A stretch of DNA of 9,272 nt from the IMG/VR virus record IMGVR_UViG_2695420685_000020; one strand, written 5' to 3'. The stretch is from a virus (lineage: Duplodnaviria > Heunggongvirae > Uroviricota > Caudoviricetes). The stretch's first letter is position 1. Each line of letters begins with the position of its first letter. The notes below the pieces were generated by a model. It worked only from the letters and a program-made list of their open reading frames with translations, had not been told where the DNA came from and searched no databases. Below, piece after piece: positions 105 to 9,272 of the stretch. The translations under genes were made by a program, and so were the position numbers.

Positions 105-353
105 GATGGCGACTATGAAACTATTCTCGCGCGAATGCAGCGTCGGGCTGGGCATTTTATGCCGGTAGCGTTACTAAAAAGTCAGTTTGAGGCACTGGAG
201 CGTCCACAAGCAGATGAACAGGATATTGTGCGCATTGATATCAACCATGATATTGCCAATGTCACCGAACAATGTCGGCAGGCTGTGCTGGCGATACGAC
301 AAAACAGAATATGTGCGAAAGAGGGCAGCGCCTCAGATCAGCGCTGCGAATGA
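105..353 (+). pseudogene. idnK: 3' fragment of a gluconokinase gene (IdnK/GntK family), apparently truncated by the IS1 insertion
   Basis: ORF track 135-353 (72 aa) plus in-frame upstream codons from 105 (DGDYETILARMQ...) resemble the gluconokinase C-terminus (LLKSQFEALERPQADE... compare GntK LLVSQFETLQEPGADE). The frame hits TAA at 87-89 inside the IS1 end, so no P-loop N-terminus is present in this window. Position next to ahr and leuX fits idnK. Confidence 0.6.
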
Positions 354-356
354 TTT

Positions 357-1376
357 TCAATAATCGGCTTTCAACACCACGCGGTAACGCGCCTTACCGT
401 CGCGCACATGCTGGATGGCGTCGTTAATTTTCGACATCGGGAACAGTTCGGTGGTCGGCGCAACCTTGCTGCGGGCGGCAAAACGCATCAGCTTACGCAG
501 CTCATAAGGCGTGCCGGTAGCAGAACCAGAGACGCTGCGATCGCCCGCAATTAACGTAAAGGCCGGAACAGACAGCGGCGTGAGAACCGCACCGACCGTA
601 TGGAAATTACCGCCATAGGTCAGCGCCTCAAAATAGGGCTGCCAGTCGAGGCTGACGTTGACGGTGTTGATAATGAGATCAAACTGCCCCGCCAGTGCTT
701 TCAGTGCCTGCGGATCGCGGCTATTCACCACTTTATCGGCACCCATCGCCAGCACTTCCTGCTCTTTCGCCGGATTAGAACTAAAGGCTGTCACCTCGCA
801 TCCCATTGCGTGCAGAAGTTTTATAGCGATATGCCCCAGCCCGCCAATACCAATTACCCCAACGCGGCTGGTAGCAGTGATATGGTGCATCAACAGTGGT
901 TTAAAGACCGTGATACCGCCGCACAACAGCGGCCCGGCGGACTCGATATCAATATTTTCTGGCAGTGGAATCACCCATTGCCAGTCCGCACGCAACTTCT
1001 CGGCAAAGCCACCGCGATTCATAATCGTCGGCACCGCACCTTGCTCGCAGTTGATCTGATTACCGCTAATACAGGCGTCGCAGTGACCACAGCTACGCGC
1101 CGTCCAGCCAATCCCGACACGCTGACCGACCTGCAAACCTTTATCCTGCGCGGCGCTCCCGAGTGCCACCACGCGCCCAATCACCTCATGCCCGGCAACC
1201 AGCGGATATTGTGAAAATCCCCATTCGTTATCGATCATCGACAGATCGGAATGGCAGATCCCGCAGTAATCCACCTGCACTTCAACATCTTGTGGCCTCA
1301 GCTCACCGGGATCGTACTCATAAACTTCCAGTTCTCCGCCCGCTTCTTTTGCGGCATAGCTTTTTATCATCGACAT
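357..1376 (-). CDS. ahr: Zn-dependent NADPH aldehyde reductase Ahr (YjgB), medium-chain dehydrogenase/reductase family, 339 aa
   Basis: ORF track 357-1418 minus. Likely true start is ATG at 1376 (MSMIKSY...) with AGAAGGA Shine-Dalgarno upstream. Zn/ADH motifs present: CGICHSD, GHEVIG, CGHCDAC, and Rossmann GIGGLGH. Stop TGA at 357-359, 3 nt from the convergent idnK stop. Confidence 0.9.
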
Positions 1377-1513
1377 TTTTTGGTCCTTCTCTGGTGTTGT
1401 TTGGGAAGTGTAGAGCATGGCAGGGCGGGGTGCCTGGAGTGTGACAAAGGTTACACATCGCTGTATGCAATGCTGAAAATTTCAGCACTTAGCGAGGTGC
1501 GAGCAAGCTGGCG

Positions 1514-1542
1514 CTTGCATGGTGGCGTGCGACAGGTATAAT
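1514..1542 (+). promoter_or_regulatory. Candidate sigma70 promoter for leuX (-35 CTTGCA/TTGCAT, -10 TATAAT at 1537-1542)
   Basis: Perfect TATAAT hexamer with TTGCAT 16 nt upstream (or CTTGCA at 17 nt), about 30 nt upstream of the mature tRNA 5' end at 1572. Confidence 0.45.
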
Positions 1543-1571
1543 CCACAACGTTTTCCGCATACCTCTTCAGT

Positions 1572-1656
1572 GCCGAAGTGGCGAAATCGGTAGACGCAGT
1601 TGATTCAAAATCAACCGTAGAAATACGTGCCGGTTCGAGTCCGGCCTTCGGCACCA
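1572..1656 (+). tRNA. leuX: tRNA-Leu (anticodon CAA), 85 nt with long variable arm and encoded CCA
   Basis: GCCGAAGTGGCGAAATCGGTAGACGCAGTTGATTCAAAATCAACCGTAGAAATACGTGCCGGTTCGAGTCCGGCCTTCGGCACCA: acceptor stem GCCGAAG/CTTCGGC, anticodon loop TTCAAAA (CAA), T-arm GGTTCGAGTCC. Confidence 0.92.
1637..1656. other. Probable attL core region (3' end of leuX) of the integrated P4-like element; exact core boundaries not determinable
   Basis: Inference only: P4-family integrases integrate into the 3' end of tRNA genes and an integrase gene starts about 150 bp downstream. The matching attR copy would lie beyond the window. Confidence 0.3.
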
Positions 1657-1768
1657 TTATTACTTCCAAGTCCATCCGAGTAAGTCCGATTATCCATTAA
1701 AAATCAATACTTTCAGCGATTTCTACGATCCTGGATCGTCCGAGGTTGTCCGTTGAAATCCGGATGTC

Positions 1769-1791
1769 ATTGGGGGCATAATTGGGGGCAT
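1769..1791 (+). repeat. Tandem 11-bp direct repeat ATTGGGGGCAT x2 (1769-1779 and 1781-1791) just upstream of int
   Basis: Seen directly: cATTGGGGGCATaATTGGGGGCATc. Function unknown; position between the attachment region and the int start suggests an integrase arm-type or regulatory site. Confidence 0.5.
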
Positions 1792-1808
1792 CTTAACTTC
1801 GATTAGAA

Positions 1809-3095
1809 ATGTGCCCCCAAATGAAGCTCAATGCTAGACAAGTCGAGACAGCAAAGCCAAAAGACAAAAGCTACAAAATGGCCGATGGCGGCGGTTTGTA
1901 TCTCGAGGTTTCGGCCAAGGGGTCTAAATACTGGCGCATGAAATACCGACGCCCCTCTGACAAAAAAGAGGATCGCCTCGCTTTTGGTGTTTGGCCGACC
2001 GTGACGCTTGCTGAAGCTAGAAAGAGGAGGGATGAAGCGAAAAAGTTGCTGGCGCAAGGTATAGATCCAAAAGCAGTACAGAAAGAGGCTCAAGCAGAGA
2101 ATGCTGGTGCTTATAATTTTGAAACTATTGCTCGTGAATGGCACGCCAGCAACAAACGTTGGAGTGAGGATCATCGGGCGCGTGTTCTTCGCTATCTAGA
2201 GCTGTATATCTTTCCTTATATTGGCTTGTCTGATATCCGACAGCTTAAAACTAGCCATCTTTTAGCACCGATAAAAAAAGTTGATGCCAGTGGTAAGCAT
2301 GATGTGGCGCAGCGTCTTCAGCAACGTGTTACTGCTATTATGCGCTATGCCGTACAGAACGATTATATAGATTCAAATCCTGCAAGTGATATGGCTGGTG
2401 CGTTATCGACAGCTAAAACGCGGCACTATCCAGCTCTACCATCACATCGTTTTCCTGAGTTCTTAGCACGTCTTGCTGCATATCGTGGTCGTATGATGAC
2501 GAAAATTGCGGTTGAACTTTCTTTATTAACATTTGTTCGTTCCAGTGAGCTACGTTTCGCTCGCTGGGATGAATTCGACTTCGATAAATCTCTATGGCGT
2601 ATACCTGCAAAACGCGAGGAAATTAAAGGCGTACGTTACTCATATAGAGGAATGAAGATGAAGGAAGAGCATCTCGTTCCACTTAGTAGGCAAGCGATAG
2701 GGTTGTTGGAGCAGTTAAAGCAGATTAGTGGTGATAAGACGCTGCTTTTCCCTGGGGATCATGACGCAACTAAGGTTATGAGTGAGAACACTGTTAATAA
2801 TGCATTGCGTGCGATGGGCTATGATACGAAAACAGAAGTTTGCGGACATGGTTTTAGGACAATGGCACGTGGTGCGTTAGGAGAGTCAGGATTATGGAGT
2901 GATGATGCTATTGAACGCCAATTGAGCCATTCGGAACGTAATAATGTGCGAGCTGCGTATATTCATACGTCTGAGCATTTAGATGAGCGCAGACTAATGG
3001 TCCAATGGTGGGCAGATTATCTTTATTCCAACAGAGAGAAGCATATCTCTGCTTTTGAATTTGCAAATAAACTTAATAAAAATAGCCTTGATTAA
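1809..3095 (+). CDS. int: P4-family tyrosine integrase (site-specific recombinase), 428 aa (alternative ATG start at 1821)
   Basis: ORF track 1809-3095. N-terminal arm-binding-type region (AKPKDKSYKMADGGGLYLEV), C-terminal catalytic region with HGFRTMARGAL (H-x-x-R) and RAAYIH (catalytic Tyr). Located directly downstream of a tRNA gene. Confidence 0.9.
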   Translation: MCPQMKLNARQVETAKPKDKSYKMADGGGLYLEVSAKGSKYWRMKYRRPSDKKEDRLAFGVWPTVTLAEARKRRDEAKKLLAQGIDPKAVQKEAQAENAGAYNFETIAREWHASNKRWSEDHRARVLRYLELYIFPYIGLSDIRQLKTSHLLAPIKKVDASGKHDVAQRLQQRVTAIMRYAVQNDYIDSNPASDMAGALSTAKTRHYPALPSHRFPEFLARLAAYRGRMMTKIAVELSLLTFVRSSELRFARWDEFDFDKSLWRIPAKREEIKGVRYSYRGMKMKEEHLVPLSRQAIGLLEQLKQISGDKTLLFPGDHDATKVMSENTVNNALRAMGYDTKTEVCGHGFRTMARGALGESGLWSDDAIERQLSHSERNNVRAAYIHTSEHLDERRLMVQWWADYLYSNREKHISAFEFANKLNKNSLD

Positions 3096-3172
3096 GTCTC
3101 CGCTTAGTTTGAACTAGCCTTCATCAACAGCAATGCTTGTGTCTTTTTAACCTTCACTTAACACCTTCTTAG

Positions 3173-3213
3173 GCAATTATTCCATTGCTTTTAAAAACTA
3201 AGTATTCCTTAGT
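3173..3213. promoter_or_regulatory. Two palindromic operator candidates (C-boxes) upstream of the controller gene: GCAAT-N6-ATTGC (3173-3188) and CTAAG-N5-CTTAG (3198-3212)
   Basis: Seen directly: GCAATtattccATTGC and aCTAAGtattcCTTAGt. Both carry a TATTCC centre and sit 50-90 bp upstream of the C-gene ATG at 3263. From memory, CTAAG-N5-CTTAG is the reported C.EcoO109I binding site. Confidence 0.55.
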
Positions 3214-3262
3214 AATTTCGAGTGTAAAAAGTGCAAACCTACCTCCAAAAAGAGGATTTTCG

Positions 3263-3568
3263 ATGCTTCCAATTAGGTTAAAAAAAGCCCGATTGAATGC
3301 TGGGTTAACTCAAGAACAGCTGGGAATACTTGTTGGCATTGATGAATGCTCTGCCAGTGCTCGCATGAATCAATATGAGAAAGGTAAACATATGCCCGAT
3401 TTTTCACTTACTAAAAAAATCGCTGATTTATTAAATGTCCCTGTCTCATATTTTTACACACCCGAAGATGACTTGGCAGAAATTATTTTGTTGATTAATA
3501 AACTAGACAAAAAACAGCGGTTAATTTTATTAAAAAATTTATCAGATGGATTTATAAGTCATGAATAA
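3263..3568 (+). CDS. Controller (C) protein of an R-M system, XRE-family helix-turn-helix regulator, 101 aa
   Basis: ORF track 3185-3568 begins at a TTG; the internal ATG at 3263 has an AGAGGA Shine-Dalgarno 6 nt upstream (3251-3256). HTH segment LTQEQLGILVGIDECSASARMNQYEKGK. Stop overlaps the start of the next ORF, and palindromic operators lie upstream. Confidence 0.8.
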   Translation: MLPIRLKKARLNAGLTQEQLGILVGIDECSASARMNQYEKGKHMPDFSLTKKIADLLNVPVSYFYTPEDDLAEIILLINKLDKKQRLILLKNLSDGFISHE

Positions 3569-4379
3569 GCAAGAAGTTATACTTAAAGTGCAGGAGTGTG
3601 CTGCGTGGTGGATTTTGGAGAGACAAAGTAAACTAACAAAGTTAATGTCAGAAACAATGTCCATAAATCCGTTTATGACCCCTTTTATTTTTGATTATCA
3701 TTCCCTTAATGATTTTGATGAACTAGTTGAAGCAATAATTGCTAAGCATTTAATGACTGGGCATGATACTGGCTTTGGAAAATTGATTGATGAAAAAATA
3801 CTTCCTAGAGTGTTTGGTGCATATAAATTAGATAAAAGTTATAGAGCTGCCAACGAGCCTTTTATACACCCTTGCTTTGATGAAATAGATCATGTAATAC
3901 AAAGGGATGATGGTAGAATTGAGCTTTTATCTCTTAAGGCAGGGAAATGGACTATTCAATTGACGATGGCTGTCCAACTAAATAAAGCATTTCACGAAAT
4001 CATAAATAATTATCCTGGAGTGGCTGACAATATAGTGGTTGGGGTTTTTTATGGAAATAGCCATGGATTAACTGATAAGTATAGAATCTTACGAGGTATC
4101 AATACTGGTGCAAACCACAATGTGATTGATATTCGTGACAAAGTGCATGTATATGCTGGTAAAGAATTTTGGTCATGGCTTAACAATGGTGAGGCTGAAA
4201 CCCAGCATTGGGTACTTGAAGGTATAGAACGTGCTGTAAAAGAAGCAGATATAAAAGAAAAAAATAAAGATCTTATTGAAAAATTCAAAGAACATGTTGC
4301 AAAGAAGTACAATGAGCAAGTTCTAAATGCTGATGGCACAGCTCAATGGCACAAATTACTTGAAATGATTAATGAATAA
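3561..4379 (+). CDS. Type II restriction endonuclease candidate, 272 aa (possibly EcoO109I-type)
   Basis: ORF track 3561-4379. ATG overlaps the C-gene stop by 8 nt (ATGAATAA). Lies between a C-protein gene and a convergent m5C methyltransferase gene. Contains a plausible PD-(D/E)xK-like segment (FDEIDHV...IELLSLK). Length agrees with my recollection of R.EcoO109I (272 aa). No direct homology check was possible. Confidence 0.7.
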   Translation: MNKQEVILKVQECAAWWILERQSKLTKLMSETMSINPFMTPFIFDYHSLNDFDELVEAIIAKHLMTGHDTGFGKLIDEKILPRVFGAYKLDKSYRAANEPFIHPCFDEIDHVIQRDDGRIELLSLKAGKWTIQLTMAVQLNKAFHEIINNYPGVADNIVVGVFYGNSHGLTDKYRILRGINTGANHNVIDIRDKVHVYAGKEFWSWLNNGEAETQHWVLEGIERAVKEADIKEKNKDLIEKFKEHVAKKYNEQVLNADGTAQWHKLLEMINE

Positions 4380-4407
4380 AAAACTGGCCTAAGGGCCAGT
4401 TTTTTTT
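4378..4407. terminator. Bidirectional intrinsic terminator between the convergent R and M genes
   Basis: AAAAACTGGCC-taag-GGCCAGTTTTTTTT: 7-bp GC-rich stem (4383-4389 / 4394-4400), 4-nt loop, A-tract on the left and T-tract on the right, located in the 38-bp gap between the two stop codons. Confidence 0.65.
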
Positions 4408-4417
4408 ATGACTAATT

Positions 4418-5671
4418 CTAAACTTCTTCTTCAAGGTCGTAGTAAGAAACATCTCCACTATATGCTTGACCATTTTTAAAGAAAGATCTGGTTCTAATAT
4501 GCGGTCTAATATGGGTTTCTATATAATCTGGAGTTACTAAATCAGCAACCTTATTTTCTTGTATACGATGAAGAAGTTCCATAGCAGCTTCCCCTGCAAC
4601 TTTACCTAACCGGACAGGAACTGCGTTACCTATCTGTCTGAATTTTTCTGTAGTTGTACCTTCAAATTTCCAGTAATCAGGAAACTCTTGTATCGCGGCA
4701 GCTTCACCAACAGAAATAGCTCTAAGTTCAGTTGGGTGGCACATACTTGTTCCCGCATGATTTGGCATTGTTACTACTGTGGGTGAAGGAAACTGGAAAG
4801 ATAGTTTCCTCCAGTAAGCACTTCTTCCTCCTTTAAGATACCAGCTTTTTCCCATAGATTCTTTTTGCATTTCTTCTGGCATGCTTCTCCAGTTTCCGCC
4901 AGGTGGAACCATTGAAAGATATTTCAGTTTTCTTGGCGAAAAATTCATGACTTCTGGATATTTATCAACAAAACCGCTCTCTGGGCCAATTACATCCCCC
5001 AGCGTTTTGAATGGCGGAAGATTATCTTCTACTCTATTGCTGAATAAAGGGGAGGCGAAATTGGCTATCATTCCGAAGCGATTACCAATTAAAATAACAC
5101 GCTCCCTAATTTGTGGGGCTCCATAGTTGGCAGCATTAACTACAAAGCAATCCACATGATAACCTAGTTTATTGAATTCGTTAGCTACCCTTTTTATTAG
5201 AGAGCCTTTTTCGAAAGCAGATGCTGCGATTGTGCCTGATAGCTCCTTCTTTTTAGAAGCTGGAACTATAGACATTGATAATAAACCGCGTACGTTTTCC
5301 ATTACGAAAACTTTTGGGTTTAATTCTTTAATCATTCGAACATATTCGAAAATAAGCTGCCCTCTGGCATCTTCTAGCCCTAACCTATTTCCAAAAACAC
5401 TAAATGCTTGGCACGGTGGACCGCCAGCAACTAAATCTATTTCTTCTTTATCATTCACTCCGGCTAGTGCTAATAATTCAGAGCCAGTGCAGTCAACAAT
5501 ACTACCTTCGAATACAGCAAGATTTGGCTTATTAGTTTTAATTGTTTTTAGAGCTGCCTTATCTTGTTCAACGCAAGCTACGAGCTCAAAGCCAGCCTCT
5601 TCGAGACCTAAGTCTAACCCCATTGCGCCACTAAATAGCGAAATAAACTTTTTACTAGACAAAATAATCAC
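4418..5671 (-). CDS. DNA (cytosine-5) methyltransferase, Type II modification enzyme, about 414-417 aa (start codon uncertain: GTG at 5671 or TTG at 5662)
   Basis: ORF track 4418-5671 minus. Canonical m5C-MTase motifs: I FSGAMGLDLG, IV GGPPCQAFS, VI ENVRGL, VIII QIRERV, X GNAVPV. No ATG at the N-terminus; AGGTGA lies upstream of the TTG at 5662. Confidence 0.9.
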   Translation of the reverse strand: MIILSSKKFISLFSGAMGLDLGLEEAGFELVACVEQDKAALKTIKTNKPNLAVFEGSIVDCTGSELLALAGVNDKEEIDLVAGGPPCQAFSVFGNRLGLEDARGQLIFEYVRMIKELNPKVFVMENVRGLLSMSIVPASKKKELSGTIAASAFEKGSLIKRVANEFNKLGYHVDCFVVNAANYGAPQIRERVILIGNRFGMIANFASPLFSNRVEDNLPPFKTLGDVIGPESGFVDKYPEVMNFSPRKLKYLSMVPPGGNWRSMPEEMQKESMGKSWYLKGGRSAYWRKLSFQFPSPTVVTMPNHAGTSMCHPTELRAISVGEAAAIQEFPDYWKFEGTTTEKFRQIGNAVPVRLGKVAGEAAMELLHRIQENKVADLVTPDYIETHIRPHIRTRSFFKNGQAYSGDVSYYDLEEEV

Positions 5672-5804
5672 CTACATACTTAGCAGCCAAATACTAGGAT
5701 ATTGTAAAGGATTAACACTAATCCTCAACTCAAGTTTCAGGGATCTTAGCAGAATCTGCTTTGCAAGGATTCTATGAATGTAAATTAATAGATACTGGCG
5801 CGCA

Positions 5805-5823
5805 GTGCTTTCCCCGCCTCGCC
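5805..5823. other. cos site: 19-nt cohesive-end sequence of P2/P4-type phages (reverse complement of GGCGAGGCGGGGAAAGCAC)
   Basis: Exact 19/19 match at 5805-5823 (GTGCTTTCCCCGCCTCGCC) to the P2/186/P4 cohesive-end sequence as I recall it, located immediately downstream of psu where P4 carries cos. Confidence 0.7.
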
Positions 5824-5923
5824 CGCCCGCTTTGTGGGATGGTTTTAATGCAGTTGCGCTGACACGCTCAGGCCACGCCGGGCGTGGCGCGATCTGCAGA
5901 AAATGAGGCAGGAAAACGCATGC

Positions 5924-5956
5924 AAAGCCATGCACCTTATCGATGCATGGCTTTTT
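5924..5956 (+). terminator. Stem-loop with 3' T-run (AAAGCCATGCA-ccttatcga-TGCATGGCTTTTT); possible terminator or cos-region structure
   Basis: 11-bp perfect inverted repeat, 9-nt loop, followed by TT. Sits between cos and the psu stop. Function and strand uncertain. Confidence 0.3.
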
Positions 5957-5987
5957 CCAGTAAAAACGGGCGGATTTTCGGGGAATT

Positions 5988-6560
5988 TTACACAGACTGA
6001 CGTGATGCCAGTTGCGCACTTTTACGCGAAAAAATCATGTTCTGCGCAGGGGTGAATTTTTCACGGCTGTCATCCACCGAAGCCGCGTCAGGCCTGAATC
6101 CGATGGTCGTAAAAATGTCGCTATCCTGTGCGGAATAATTAATTTTTTCCCCCTTCGCAAGCCAGGAAAGAAGGGCTTCACGCAGGGCATCTGTGGCACG
6201 CTGTATGGCACAGTTTCGGGCAATGGCCGTCAGCTCACTGTAGCCCATCAGCTCCGGTGCCAGTGCCGCCGCCAGTGCTGTGCCGTGCTGCTGCATAAAA
6301 TCATTCAGCCGGTCGCGGATGCTGATGTGCTGAACGGCTTCATGCGAACGAATATAACGACCGGCGGTCTGATTCACCTGCCATTTTCTGACTTCGATAA
6401 TATTGCGTAATTCGTCAAGGCGACTGACGTTTCTGCCTTCTCCTGACAGAAGCCGCAGATATTCCTGTTCGGCCGCTGCCAGCTCATTTTTGCGTTGCAG
6501 CCATGCTGCTTTGTTATTCTGGCAGACCTCAAAAGCCTGCTGTAATGACATTGTGGTCAC
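5988..6560 (-). CDS. psu: Psu (polarity suppression / Rho-antagonist capsid decoration protein) of P4-type satellites, 190 aa with GTG start (alternative ATG at 6551)
   Basis: ORF track 5988-6560 minus. N-terminus xTTMSLQQAFEVCQNNKAAWLQRKNELAAAEQEYLRL closely resembles P4 Psu as I recall it (same 190-aa length). AGGAGA Shine-Dalgarno 7 nt upstream of the GTG. Confidence 0.88.
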   Translation of the reverse strand: MTTMSLQQAFEVCQNNKAAWLQRKNELAAAEQEYLRLLSGEGRNVSRLDELRNIIEVRKWQVNQTAGRYIRSHEAVQHISIRDRLNDFMQQHGTALAAALAPELMGYSELTAIARNCAIQRATDALREALLSWLAKGEKINYSAQDSDIFTTIGFRPDAASVDDSREKFTPAQNMIFSRKSAQLASRQSV

Positions 6561-6574
6561 ACCCCGTCTCCTGA

Positions 6575-6820
6575 TTAATGGTTGAATGGTGAGCTGTAAC
6601 AGCCTTTAACTTTTCGGACAACAGCCGGTGCTGTGCTTGCCGGTGCTGGTTTTTCCTCCGTGACCGGAGAACGAATCACGGCACAAATTGACTCATGCGT
6701 TTTAAATGTCGCCGAACAGTAAATATTCTGGCACTGCAGATAACTTTCTTTGACATTGTCACTCACATACCGGCTGGTGCGGGTATGCGCTGAATGACGA
6801 CAGAAAGGGCAGCGCATCAT
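6575..6820 (-). CDS. Ogr/Delta-family zinc-finger late-gene transcriptional activator, 81 aa, single domain
   Basis: ORF track 6575-6877; true start likely ATG at 6820 (MMRCPFCRHSAHTRTSRY...), overlapping the sid stop as ATGA. Cys4 pattern CPFC...CQNIYC as in P2 Ogr (MFHCPLCQHAAHARTSRY...). Confidence 0.85.
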   Translation of the reverse strand: MMRCPFCRHSAHTRTSRYVSDNVKESYLQCQNIYCSATFKTHESICAVIRSPVTEEKPAPASTAPAVVRKVKGCYSSPFNH

Positions 6821-7551
6821 GACAGCAGTCCTCTGGCCTTCAGCTCTGCTCCCTGCTGGTCCATTTTGTCCTGCCACACCTTGCGCTGTGCCGGTGTGCC
6901 TGCCACCTCATAATCCATGTGCGGGAGTGTTGCCGCTGACAGTCCGGCCAGCCGGAGAACCGGCTCACCGCTGAGGCTGATTTGCATCTGTTTAATTTTC
7001 TGCTCCAGCGATGATTTCACCTGCTGCATGACAGCCCTTTCCGGTGCGACGTAACCCTGATGGCCGGTGGTGTTGGCGAGCGGATTTTCCTGTACCAGAA
7101 TGCTCAGATGCATTGCCCGGACAAGCGCCTCACAGGTTTCATTCAGGGCGTGTTCCAGCTCATGCTCTGCATACAGACTCAGAAGGTGATGATGTGCCTT
7201 CCGGTAGGCGGTGGCCGTGCTGTCACACGCCCCTTTCAGGCGTTCGCGTTCAAAATTCAGCACCACGGCCAGATTGTCATATTCCTGTACCAGCTCCCGG
7301 CGTGCCACGCGCTCAATGTGGCGCTGTTTCAGCTCGTCGCTCAGGACACCACCGGCTGCACGAAAGGCCGTGCGCCAGTCGTCAGCGTCGTTTCCGTCGG
7401 CTTGCGCCAGCGCATTTTTTTCCTGCTCTGCCCGTTCAATGGCCGTGACGGTCTCATCCATCAGGCGGGCGTTCTCAAGATGAGCGACTCTGGCCTTTTC
7501 CAGTTGTGCCAGCGCGGGTTGCAGATATTCAGGGATGGTGTTGTCAGACAT
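6817..7551 (-). CDS. sid: Sid (capsid size determination, external scaffold) protein of P4-type satellites, 244 aa
   Basis: ORF track 6817-7569. ATG at 7551 (MSDNTIPEYLQPALAQLEKAR...) has a GAGGA Shine-Dalgarno 8 nt upstream and gives 244 aa, the length I recall for P4 Sid. Gene order sid-delta-psu matches P4. Confidence 0.85.
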   Translation of the reverse strand: MSDNTIPEYLQPALAQLEKARVAHLENARLMDETVTAIERAEQEKNALAQADGNDADDWRTAFRAAGGVLSDELKQRHIERVARRELVQEYDNLAVVLNFERERLKGACDSTATAYRKAHHHLLSLYAEHELEHALNETCEALVRAMHLSILVQENPLANTTGHQGYVAPERAVMQQVKSSLEQKIKQMQISLSGEPVLRLAGLSAATLPHMDYEVAGTPAQRKVWQDKMDQQGAELKARGLLS

Positions 7552-7623
7552 TTTCCGGCTCCTCGTCACTTCAGGTTAAGAAAATTGTGACGTACACCGG
7601 ACAACAACACGACGCATTGCAGA

Positions 7624-7641
7624 TGTGCCAGCCCTGACACA
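7624..7641. promoter_or_regulatory. Delta/Ogr-type activator dyad TGT-N12-ACA upstream of sid (candidate Psid activator site)
   Basis: TGTgccagccctgacACA at 7624-7641. Centre is about 80 bp upstream of the sid ATG, compatible with an activator site centred near -55 and a 20-30 nt leader. A second dyad, TGTgacgtacaccggACA, lies at 7586-7603. Confidence 0.45.
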
Positions 7642-7720
7642 GGAGACTCATCCTCAGACCGGCAAGCCAGGAAAAGGTCGCAGGAAAAACCGGCTTACTG
7701 TTTGTTTTTTTATATTTTAC

Positions 7721-7824
7721 TGTTCACCTCTGTTCACCTTAATAAAAAAGATAAGTAATACAGTAAATTAAATGGTGAACAATCGCAGTAATGACTGTTC
7801 ACCGTCTGTTCACCACTGTTCACC
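7721..7824. repeat. Iteron cluster of the octamer TGTTCACC (crr-like cis replication region / alpha primase binding sites)
   Basis: Direct copies at 7721-7728, 7731-7738, 7796-7803, 7807-7814, 7817-7824 and one inverted copy GGTGAACA at 7774-7781. TGTTCACC is the type I iteron of P4 ori/crr as I recall it. Located between sid and vis. Confidence 0.65.
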
Positions 7825-7982
7825 CGTTCATGGACTTTTTGTGCTGTTTATTACTTTTTATTTTTATTAATTAACTGAAATAAATAAGAAAAAACAATTT
7901 GTATTTCACTATAATTTTTTCCAGCTCCTTCCAGAGCGTTTTAAAGCCATCTGGCGCTGATGTACAAAAAATACACAGCCAT

Positions 7983-8000
7983 TGTAAGACTGCCGGAACA
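7983..8000. promoter_or_regulatory. Delta/Ogr-type dyad TGT-N12-ACA upstream of vis (candidate late-left promoter activator site)
   Basis: TGTaagactgccggaACA at 7983-8000, about 110 bp upstream of the vis ATG. Confidence 0.4.
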
Positions 8001-8102
8001 AATCCCCCCTGTTGCGTCTGCCGAAAATATTCACAAAATAAAGCGCTACCCGAAGCCGGACGGACTTATCCGGTGCTGTATGGACATTAACGAGGTAGCC
8101 CG

Positions 8103-8369
8103 ATGCAAGCTGTTTTTTCTTCCCCGTCTCCCGCCCCTGTGACGCCACTGATGCCGCTGCCGGACATCACACAGGAGCGTTTTCTACGTCTTCCGGAAGT
8201 GATGCACCTGTGCGGCCTGTCACGCTCGACCATCTACGAACTCATCCGTAAGGGGGAATTTCCGCCGCAGGTGAGTCTTGGCGGTAAAAATGTGGCCTGG
8301 CTGCACTCTGAAGTCACCGCATGGATGGCCGGGCGCATTGCCGGACGCAAACGGGGGTACGACGCATGA
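8103..8369 (+). CDS. vis: Vis/AlpA-family small DNA-binding regulator (P4 Vis-like), 88 aa
   Basis: ORF track 8103-8369. ATG with GAGGT 7 nt upstream. AlpA-type HTH segment [45 protein letters not shown]. Length equals P4 orf88 (vis) as I recall it. Confidence 0.8.
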
Positions 8370-8404
8370 TGATGCCCGCTCTGCAAAAACTCCCTTTTTC
8401 TGGC

Positions 8405-8434
8405 TTGCCTTTTTCCGGCATTTGCGGATATAGT
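8405..8434 (+). promoter_or_regulatory. Candidate sigma70 promoter (TTGCCT-N18-TATAGT) for the immunity/left operon (PLE-like)
   Basis: -35 TTGCCT at 8405-8410 and -10 TATAGT at 8429-8434, just downstream of vis and upstream of the complementary-box leader. Confidence 0.35.
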
Positions 8435-8465
8435 TTTTCCGCTGCCGCAAAATCGGCAGCCGGGC

Positions 8466-8757
8466 GTGAGAACCCGAGCAATTCACAGGCGACATATGAC
8501 GCGCCACGCGTCTTTTTTTGTGTCGCAATCAATGCCACAGAGCGCCAGATTATGGTGTGGTGTGTGGTCAGTCGTGCAGATGGCATTCCGTGCATCCTGC
8601 CCGCGTCCGCTCATTATGCCGCAGAGTCAATGGTAGCTCAGGCGGGGCAGCCTCCGGGCTGGCCGGTATCCTGTGAAGCCGGTATTCTCACCCCCGTCTG
8701 GGCTATCGCCATCGAGCGTGAGAACTCCGGCGATAGCGTTATTTGCTATTCACAGGA
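8466..8757 (+). ncRNA. Immunity-type leader with CI/c4-like antisense boxes: box A 8466-8489, complementary box B 8669-8691, box C 8718-8757 (overlaps the RBS of the downstream small ORF); RNA boundaries unknown
   Basis: GTGAGAA...TTCACAGG occurs at 8466-8489 and at 8718-8757. Its reverse complement CCTGTGAA...TTCTCAC occurs between them at 8670-8691. Box C ends in AGGAGG, the Shine-Dalgarno of the ORF starting at 8768. Confidence 0.35.
8498..8519 (+). terminator. Intrinsic terminator: GACGCG-cca-CGCGTC followed by T7
   Basis: 6-bp GC stem at 8498-8503 / 8507-8512 with T-run at 8513-8519, about 60-80 nt downstream of the candidate promoter. Confidence 0.5.
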
Positions 8758-8767
8758 GGCTGCCATC

Positions 8768-8965
8768 ATGGCTACAACCCTTACCCCCTCACACCCTGAA
8801 TTTGTCTTTGTGTTTGCGGCTGTCCGTCGCGCAGACCGTCATCCCCGTATCTGTATGCTTCGCACCGTCGCCGGTGATGAACGCAGTGCCCGCCGTTCCC
8901 TTGTCCGTGACTATGTGCTCTCCCTTGCTGCCCGTCTGCCGGTGGTGGAGGTGTCCCGTGCGTAA
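8768..8965 (+). CDS. Small Icd/Kil-like protein (65 aa), first gene after the immunity leader
   Basis: ATG at 8768 with AGGAGG 8 nt upstream ([65 protein letters not shown]). It is the C-terminal part of track ORF 8321-8965, whose upstream portion is the non-coding leader. Family assignment is by position and recollection of P4-like annotations only. Confidence 0.55.
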
Positions 8966-9245
8966 TAAAAAAGCCCCTCAGACCGTCTCAGCACGTCATG
9001 ACGCCCGTGAACACCTCAGCATTGAGGCTTACCATAAGCTCAACCGCGCCAGCGCCGTATCCCAGTTTGTTGGGGGTGATTTGATTCACCGTGAACTCTC
9101 CGGCCTGCATCAGCTCTACATTCCGCATATTTTCAGTTACCTGAATGAAGATATTGATTTTGTGCTGAATGAACTGAAAGCCAAAGGCCTGTGCCGCGAT
9201 TTTCTCGCCCAGCAGAAAGACCGGGGAGACAGGACGCATGTTTGA
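8958..9245 (+). CDS. Hypothetical protein (95 aa) with GTG start overlapping the preceding stop (GTGCGTAA)
   Basis: Open frame to TGA at 9243-9245 with no in-frame ATG. GTG at 8958 is preceded by GGAGGT (8947-8952) at 5-nt spacing. Corresponds to the 3' part of track ORF 8673-9245. Confidence 0.45.
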
Positions 9246-9272
9246 TTTTCCCCAGCCCGGTGAGATTTACCG
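9238..9272 (+). CDS. 5' end of a further ORF ([11 protein letters not shown]...), partial, continues past the right edge
   Basis: ATG at 9238 overlaps the preceding TGA (ATGTTTGA), with GGGGAGA/AGGA upstream. Only 11 codons are visible. Confidence 0.25.
   Translation, partial: MFDFPQPGEIY

Follow-up and report, generated by a model that had tools for sequence, protein, structure and literature searches.

What kind of element occupies the 3' end of leuX in this DNA, and can it still behave as a satellite phage? We examined a stretch of 9,272 nt (the window), for which an earlier note had proposed a P4-type satellite prophage integrated at leuX. Alignment to the P4 reference genome (NC_001609 / X51522), a comparison that the note had recommended, shows that the window is collinear with P4 from position 1633, where the homology begins, over all backbone segments and in the prophage permutation. 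Together with the gene families and immunity RNAs, this bears out the proposal. We are highly confident that positions 1637-9272 are the left two-thirds of a P4-like satellite of about 11.4 kb, put into the 3' end of leuX by its own tyrosine integrase. The kind of element is one already described: a P4-type satellite prophage that occupies leuX, a tRNA gene, in a chromosome of E. coli type.

The P4 backbone downstream of leuX

At its left end the element resembles P4 in its leuX site, its attL core and its integrase arm sites:

1572-1656, plus strand: leuX, tRNA-Leu(CAA) (ARAGORN; Rfam tRNA, 59.4 bits), the integration target
1637-1656, plus strand: attL core GAGTCCGGCCTTCGGCACCA, the last 20 bases of leuX and the same as the P4 attP core
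1770-1820: three Int arm-type repeats, TTGGGGGCATAA (plus), TTGGGGGCATCT (plus) and TTGGGGGCACAT (minus)
1809-3095, plus strand: int, P4-type tyrosine integrase (Pfam Arm-DNA-bind_3, Phage_int_M and Phage_integrase)

The arm repeats equal those at P4 3954-3965, 3942-3953 and 3915-3926, respectively, with no differences. Int is 428 aa long when read from the ATG at 1809 and 424 aa in public-record calls, which start at 1821. It is 91.5% identical to P4 Int at the amino acid level, with a C-terminus that diverges from that of P4 past position 3020, and the exact protein is present on 249 contigs.

Beyond int, P4 and the window have a common order of hotspot, cos, psu-delta-sid, Psid/PLL, ori, vis, PLE, CI RNA, epsilon and ORF151. 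The late genes and the control sites next to them are as follows:

5805-5823, minus strand: cos, 19-nt cohesive end GGCGAGGCGGGGAAAGCAC, an exact 19-mer common to P2 and P4
5988-6560, minus strand: psu, 190 aa, capsid decoration protein and Rho antagonist (Pfam Psu, 1e-87)
6575-6820, minus strand: delta, 81 aa, late activator with a single Ogr/Delta zinc finger (Pfam Ogr_Delta, 2e-18)
6817-7551, minus strand: sid, 244 aa, external scaffold for small capsids (PHROG 6165, 4e-114)
7586-7603 and 7624-7641, minus strand: Psid region, two TGT-N12-ACA dyads with 38 bp between centres
7721-7824, unstranded: ori, six TGTTCACC type-I iterons, predicted alpha-binding sites, homologous to P4 9310-9413
7983-8000, plus strand: TGT-N12-ACA dyad upstream of vis, PLL activator site
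8103-8369, plus strand: vis (ORF88), 88 aa, AlpA-type excisionase and late-promoter regulator (Pfam Phage_AlpA, 7e-21)

The homologies claimed for psu, sid and delta hold, and the late operon runs on the minus strand toward cos, as the earlier note had stated. Amino acid identity to the P4 counterpart is 96.8% for Psu, 97.5% for Sid and 98.9% for Vis (P4 ORF88). All three dyads fall at the expected promoter positions, and the six iterons at 7721-7824 compare with 0.21 copies expected by chance. For Sid there is no Pfam family.

The remainder of the window holds the immunity region and epsilon, with the immunity RNAs assigned to Rfam families RF01695, RF03163 and RF01394:

8366-8965, plus strand: kil/eta/'cI' ORF, 199 aa, Phage_ASH / Icd-like (Pfam Phage_ASH, 7e-24; supported by the RefSeq name in a relative)
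8405-8434, plus strand: sigma-70-like promoter TTGCCT-18-TATAGT at the PLE position; the leader RNA match begins at 8441
8428-8518, plus strand: immunity leader, with the seqA target and the terminator GACGCGCCACGCGTC followed by a T run
8626-8713, plus strand: CI immunity RNA, a C4-family antisense RNA that includes seqB (Rfam C4, 74.9 bits; gathering 45)
8713-8734, plus strand: seqC, second target, a direct repeat of seqA complementary to seqB
8958-9245, plus strand: epsilon, 95 aa, helper derepression protein (Pfam Derepression, 2e-49)
9238-9272, plus strand: start of ORF151, which runs past the window end; its first 11 aa are those of P4 ORF151

The leader matches two Rfam models, c4-a1b1 at 8428-8480 (49.5 bits; gathering 46.7) and isrK at 8441-8518 (69.7 bits; gathering 50), and 8457-8472 in seqA is complementary to 8685-8700 in seqB. 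A generic scan for sigma-70 promoters and terminators performed overall no better than on shuffled sequence, and from it we kept only the sites matching the P4 PLE and the leader terminator. The final 137 aa of the kil/eta/'cI' ORF are 100% identical to the P4 'cI' ORF, and epsilon is 98.9% identical to its P4 counterpart.

Every item in the order that the earlier note had given, from int through cargo, cos, psu, delta, sid, dyads, iterons, vis and leader to an icd/kil-like stretch, is present in the orientation stated. Three of these can be refined: the icd/kil-like stretch is the P4 kil/eta/'cI' ORF with an embedded CI RNA, followed by epsilon; the cargo, which the note had left unnamed, is the EcoO109I restriction-modification system; and delta is a short, single-domain variant. 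Epsilon was absent from the note's gene list.

Nucleotide identity to P4 is 83% in int and 95.5-96.7% in psu and from sid through epsilon, and the proteins other than delta are 91-100% identical in amino acid sequence. Each backbone ORF in the window is full length, with zero internal stops. Of the seven genes that define P4-like satellites in SatelliteFinder (PMC10085698), six lie inside the window, namely Integrase, Psu, Delta, Sid, the AlpA-type regulator (Vis) and Epsilon/Ash; the seventh is the alpha primase-helicase. The sequence shows all P4 backbone modules present, without interruption.

Right end, mobility and rival readings

The earlier note had placed the right end of the element outside the window and had advised looking rightward for an alpha gene and an attR. 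ORF151 is indeed cut by the window end, and both features were found in a near-identical contig, L009, which differs from window 108-9272 by 2 mismatches in 9,165 bases (99.98% identity). This contig carries ORF151, ORF106, a 777-aa alpha primase-helicase, crr repeats and attR, where the 3' end of leuX recurs some 3.8 kb past the window edge. Alpha, crr and attR thus all lie beyond the window and are known from L009, alpha and attR also from the E. coli TUM9757 element (L003). Taking the right end from L009, we infer a whole element of about 11.4 kb. While attL is inside the window, attR is seen solely in L009 and further relatives, where it takes a variant form. A search of L009 for the 24-nt attR repeat, exact or with up to 3 mismatches, did not find it; the variant attR was located by aligning to P4. 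Its core is irregular, with GAGTCCGGCCTTCG followed by three copies of CACCTTCG, an 8-nt unit, and this might lower the efficiency of excision. In other relatives attR is one G shorter than the attL core.

These attR variants speak for a rival reading, in which the element is an immobile remnant derived from P4, that is, a fixed defence island at leuX that the host retains, made up of EcoO109I and leftovers, with excision and packaging lost. Insertion sequences point the same way: an IS1 lies 1.5 kb leftward and shows IS activity in the source genome, in strain ESDR8 an IS21-family element lies within the stretch that matches, and in E. coli H709c the P4 prophage that bears EcoO109I reportedly had its sid disrupted by IS21. 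In the window, however, sid is intact, as are all other backbone ORFs and the cos, iterons, dyads, arm sites and CI RNA. Alpha is full length in L009, the element's length of about 11.4 kb suits capsids of P4 size, and the one-G-short attR is so widespread among relatives that we regard it as the normal state of the leuX site. We therefore consider loss of mobility quite unlikely.

Two other readings have next to no probability. P4-type integrases at tRNA genes, including leuX, are common on non-phage islands, and two relatives (L006 and L007) have a second integrase after attR; even so, a genomic or pathogenicity island merely using such an integrase is already refuted by gene content, since the window holds six of the seven P4-like core genes along with cos, ori and the immunity RNA, while virulence or other island cargo is absent from it. 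Origin as part of a P2-like helper prophage, suggested by cos (flanking homology at about 5798-5864, 90-95% identical to P2-like phages over about 60 nt) and by the 54-57% identity of the short delta to P2-family Ogr proteins, is likewise already refuted by gene content: capsid, tail, terminase and lysis genes are all absent from the window, and psu, sid, epsilon, vis and the CI RNA, all specific to P4, share 97-100% identity with it.

For the P4-like satellite that we favor, P4 biology (Lindqvist, Deho & Calendar 1993, as cited in PMC13586616) suggests a life cycle. In the lysogen, the CI RNA (8626-8713) would pair through seqB with seqA and seqC, so that transcripts from PLE end early and alpha and epsilon stay silent. 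In the presence of a P2-like helper, the helper's Ogr or Cox and the satellite's own delta would turn on PLL and Psid through the TGT-N12-ACA sites. Vis and Int would excise the element, alpha, encoded beyond the window, would bind the TGTTCACC iterons for replication, and epsilon would lift helper repression. Sid would then make the helper capsid protein form small shells, which Psu would decorate, and the helper terminase would cut at cos. By analogy, the element is expected to be excised and packaged with a helper. No helper prophage is visible in the 9,272-nt window.

The EcoO109I cargo

Between int and cos lies a 2.8-kb slot (3021-5804) without homology to P4, and the G+C content of the cargo is 33-41%, as opposed to 51-59% in the P4 backbone. 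Where the P4 hotspot carries gop, beta and cII, that of the window holds what its sequence identifies as the EcoO109I type II restriction-modification operon:

3158-3212, plus strand: C-boxes upstream of the C gene; CTAAG-N5-CTTAG is perfect at 3198-3212, with a 2-mismatch copy at 3158-3172
3263-3568, plus strand: C.EcoO109I controller, 101 aa, HTH (PADLOC Control_protein, 3e-69)
3561-4379, plus strand: R.EcoO109I type II restriction endonuclease, 272 aa (PADLOC REase_II, 5.5e-198)
4418-5671, minus strand: C5-cytosine DNA methyltransferase, 417 aa, convergent with R (Pfam DNA_methylase, 7e-65; PADLOC MTase_II, 3.5e-105)

The two C-boxes are spaced 25 bp apart, and both motif and spacing agree with the operator described in PMC3115060. 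The C protein, whose gene overlaps that of R by 8 nt, is exactly UniProt Q9RPJ4, an entry from the H709c work named 'Eco0109IREP'. A weak Pfam match (RE_EcoO109I, 1e-5) could suggest that the endonuclease is a distant relative, which is ruled out by its identity at 272 of 272 residues to the crystallised enzyme 'EcoO109IR' (PDB 1WTD/1WTE). The methylase encoded at 4418-5671 is presumed to be M.EcoO109I.

The window contains no RGGNCCY site, against 5.7 expected. We rejected avoidance of EcoO109I sites as a specific feature of this element because P4 (none, with about 11 expected) and loci lacking the restriction-modification system (0-6, with 10-22 expected) are also short of them.

The placement of the cassette has precedents. 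Kita et al. (1999, J Bacteriol 181:6822), cited in PMC9122126, reportedly described a P4 prophage of strain H709c with EcoO109I between int and psu at leuX, as in the window. More generally, P4-like elements have a hotspot of variable cargo between psu/cos and int, adjoining cos as here (PMC9122126; PMC13586616), and type II restriction-modification systems are among the cargos of this psu-int defence hotspot (Rousset et al. 2022, PMC9122126). The window cargo is one particular allele of that hotspot, nothing further.

In a lysogen, M.EcoO109I would shield RGGNCCY sites while R.EcoO109I would cleave incoming unmodified DNA, and C.EcoO109I, acting at the C-boxes (3158-3212), would postpone R expression on entry into a new cell. 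The cargo would thus act on its own as anti-phage defence of the host, and it probably stabilises the satellite as well. The value of the locus lies mainly in its correct annotation, as a further instance of a satellite and a restriction-modification system that are both well studied, in a systematically surveyed hotspot; it also offers a clean textbook case of a mobile satellite bringing a defence system to its host.

A short delta and a recombinant backbone

The one backbone protein that departs strongly from P4 is delta, which has two domains and 166 aa in P4 and a single domain of 81 aa in the window. Aligned with the N-terminal half of P4 delta, the short form shows only 52% identity. The P4 alignment breaks at 6545-6698, which raised the possibility of a deletion pseudogene; we rejected it, given the intact zinc finger, the occurrence of the 81-aa form in 155 of 5,426 complete E. 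coli genomes and the presence of the exact protein on at least 1000 contigs. We infer that the 81-aa delta is able to activate the satellite's own promoters.

The closest relative in a complete genome is the leuX element of E. coli TUM9757 (NZ_CP128931), which is 99.05% identical over window 105-6545, EcoO109I cassette included. This full element, with alpha and attR, has a P4-type 166-aa delta, and in the right arm its identity to the window drops to 94%. Because TUM9757 matches the left part and yet differs in delta and in the right arm, the window is a recombinant in which two P4-like lineages meet within delta. Among relatives, an identical Sid adjoins at least four different cargos, a pattern of one Sid beside differing cargos that has been described (PMC9122126 and PMC13586616). 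Together with the swapped delta allele, this shows reshuffling of core and cargo.

A rather unlikely further reading is that the joint, which sets a short, Ogr-like, single-domain activator in an otherwise P4-identical backbone, marks a shift in the set of P2-family helpers that can activate the satellite or be exploited by it. Delta alleles would then be, besides defence cargo, swapped modules that set helper range. The 81-aa allele itself is widespread and intact and occurs alongside several cargos.

Collinearity with phage P4 and integration at leuX

The window contains a single tRNA gene, tRNA-Leu(CAA), which lies downstream of ahr, where annotated E. coli chromosomes have leuX. The 20 bases that close leuX (1637-1656), GAGTCCGGCCTTCGGCACCA, are identical to the annotated attP core of P4, and int encodes arm-binding, central and catalytic integrase domains.

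ahr, leuX and the left end of the element
357-1418, minus strand: ahr
1572-1656: tRNA-Leu(CAA)
1770-1781, 1782-1793 and 1809-1820: three 12-nt Int arm repeats, identical to those of P4
1809-3095: int, 91.5% identity to P4 Int

Local BLAST of the window against the P4 reference genome identified three collinear blocks.

Blocks shared with P4
1633-3020: P4 4101-2715, 83%
5824-6545: P4 11624-10903, 96.7%
6698-9272: P4 10436-7861, 95.5%

Homology ends at 3020 and restarts exactly at the cohesive end. This layout is what results when the P4 genome is closed into a circle at cos and opened at attP, which is the prophage map. Because the blocks lie in prophage order, the individual features listed in the earlier note are real and correctly placed. 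P4-like satellites have been defined by seven genes (PMC10085698), six of which are in the window and the seventh in the near-identical contig L009. The note's identification of a P4-type satellite prophage at leuX is supported.

At the left edge, bases 1-104 are an IS1 end, to which the IS1 copies of more than 5000 plasmids show 100% identity. The IS1 cuts the gluconokinase gene idnK, of which only the 3' 249 nt (105-353) remain adjoining it. A search with the whole window matched every E. coli genome many times because of this IS1 end.

Searching for exact copies of the Sid protein gave eight contexts (L004-L011). One of them, L009, equals window 108-9272 except at positions 7979 and 8184, and ends where the window's IS1 starts. 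Past the window edge it has ORF151, ORF106 (DUF5375), a 777-aa alpha primase-helicase and two crr repeats, with P4 homology running down to P4 position 4079. Its attR core (12939-12973 of the L009 reverse complement, window-equivalent about 13046-13080) consists of GAGTCCGGCCTTCG, three tandem copies of CACCTTCG and CACCA. Other leuX relatives have a single copy of the 8-nt CACCTTCG, and their attR is GAGTCCGGCCTTCGCACCA, one G short of the attL/tRNA core. With L009, attL and attR are 11,409 bp apart, compared to 11,624 bp in P4. The full element is likewise present in E. coli TUM9757, the closest complete genome. The earlier note's reading would have been refuted if alpha or attR were missing within 5-8 kb to the right or if the psu, sid or delta homologies failed; since both are present in L009 and all three homologies hold, its reading stands.

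Late operon, origin and immunity region

The late genes sid, delta and psu read toward cos on the minus strand. About 60 nt around the cos 19-mer also match cos regions of the P2 family.

Late operon
5805-5823, minus strand: cos 19-mer, GGCGAGGCGGGGAAAGCAC
6560-5988, minus strand: psu, 190 aa, 96.8% identity to P4
6820-6575, minus strand: delta, 81 aa, one Ogr/Delta zinc finger
7551-6817, minus strand: sid, 244 aa, 97.5% identity to P4
7586-7603 and 7624-7641: TGT-N12-ACA dyads upstream of sid, centres 38 bp apart

Assuming a transcription start some 25 nt ahead of the sid ATG, the dyads fall near -55 and -17; delta/Ogr sites at Psid are reportedly arranged in this way in the work of Julien and Calendar.

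Origin to right edge
7721-7824: six exact copies of the ori octamer TGTTCACC (0.21 expected), corresponding to annotated P4 ori type-1 repeats
7983-8000: third TGT-N12-ACA dyad, preceding vis
8103-8369: vis, AlpA family, 98.9% identity to P4 ORF88
8366-8965: long ORF, Phage_ASH, named 'Icd-like' in RefSeq relatives
8405-8434: promoter-like site at the expected PLE position
8428-8480: c4-a1b1
8441-8518: isrK, with a GC hairpin and T run at its end
8626-8713: C4 antisense RNA
8958-9245: epsilon, 98.9% identity to P4

The three RNAs, all Rfam matches above the gathering score, directly follow the promoter-like site. Within the C4 match, 8685-8700 is complementary to 8457-8472 and 8713-8731, which are direct repeats of each other; P4 immunity has this seqB/seqA/seqC layout. 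The C-terminal 137 residues of the Icd-like ORF are identical to the historical P4 'cI' ORF. Only the first 11 codons of ORF151 precede the window end.

None of the sequence modules is missing or damaged. If the element follows established P4 biology, Int would have put it into leuX, and lysogeny would be kept by CI RNA pairing with seqA and seqC, terminating PLE transcripts. A P2-like helper would switch on PLL and Psid via the dyads; Vis and Int would excise the element, and alpha would replicate it from the iterons and crr. Epsilon would derepress the helper, delta would turn on its late genes, Sid and Psu would remodel the capsid, and helper terminase would cut cos.

A short delta allele at a recombination joint

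Whereas P4 delta has 166 aa and two domains, the window's delta is a single domain of 81 aa, with 52% identity to the N-terminal half of P4 delta. Among phages, it is closest to Ogr proteins of the P2 family (54-57%). We rejected the idea that it is a lesion, as the allele occurs in 155 complete genomes and the exact protein on at least 1000 contigs. Because identity to TUM9757 is 99.05% left of delta and only 94% right of it, the window is a recombinant in which two P4-like lineages are combined. The joint is 6546-6697, where the delta allele switches (81 aa versus 166 aa), and the right arm is 98-100% identical to elements with other cargos.

EcoO109I as variable cargo

The segment 3021-5804 has no P4 counterpart, and its G+C content is 33-41%, compared to 51-59% in the P4 backbone.

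Cargo genes
3263-3568: 101-aa HTH protein, exact match to UniProt Q9RPJ4 'Eco0109IREP'
3561-4379: 272-aa endonuclease, 272/272 identical to crystallised R.EcoO109I (PDB 1WTD/1WTE); overlaps the HTH gene by 8 nt
5671-4418, convergent: 417-aa C5-cytosine methyltransferase

A perfect CTAAG-N5-CTTAG (3198-3212) lies 25 bp from a two-mismatch copy (3158-3172). This pair fits the operator class of C.Csp231I and C.EcoO109I, including its 7 extra spacer bases (PMC3115060). Given these operators, the endonuclease identity and the exact HTH match, the cargo is the EcoO109I type II R-M system (RGGNCCY). In the lysogen it would act as a defence and probably also as a stabilising module, with the C protein timing when the endonuclease is expressed as the element enters a new cell. 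The Pfam RE_EcoO109I model gives this genuine enzyme a score of just 25.8 bits (E = 1e-5), so weak matches to the model can conceal exact ones.

At 99% identity or more, the cassette occurs in 69 of 5,426 complete E. coli genomes, with one chromosomal copy each; 68 genomes have a locus that matches 80% or more of the whole window, so this is essentially always the context of the cassette.

No RGGNCCY site occurs in the 9.3-kb window, where shuffles predict 5.7, or in P4 itself (about 11 expected). Site loss as an adaptation of the element was rejected: P4 and chromosomal loci without R-M are equally depleted, so the depletion appears to reflect the general composition of these genomes.

In 1999, Kita et al. 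reportedly described EcoO109I in a P4 prophage at leuX, where it lies between int and psu. Their work is cited by Rousset et al. 2022 (PMC9122126), in which the psu-int locus of P4-like satellites is a cos-adjacent hotspot, type II R-M included. Elements of this kind are already known, and this one essentially in its details as well. Among L004-L011, the same Sid protein stands beside four hotspot contents between psu and int: a 565-aa ORC/CDC6-like protein, a 276-aa protein without a Pfam match, a 761-aa AAA_13 ATPase and EcoO109I. This agrees with published statements that the defences can differ between elements whose core genes are identical (PMC13586616). In L006 and L007 a second P4-type integrase lies just past attR, suggesting tandem islands at leuX.
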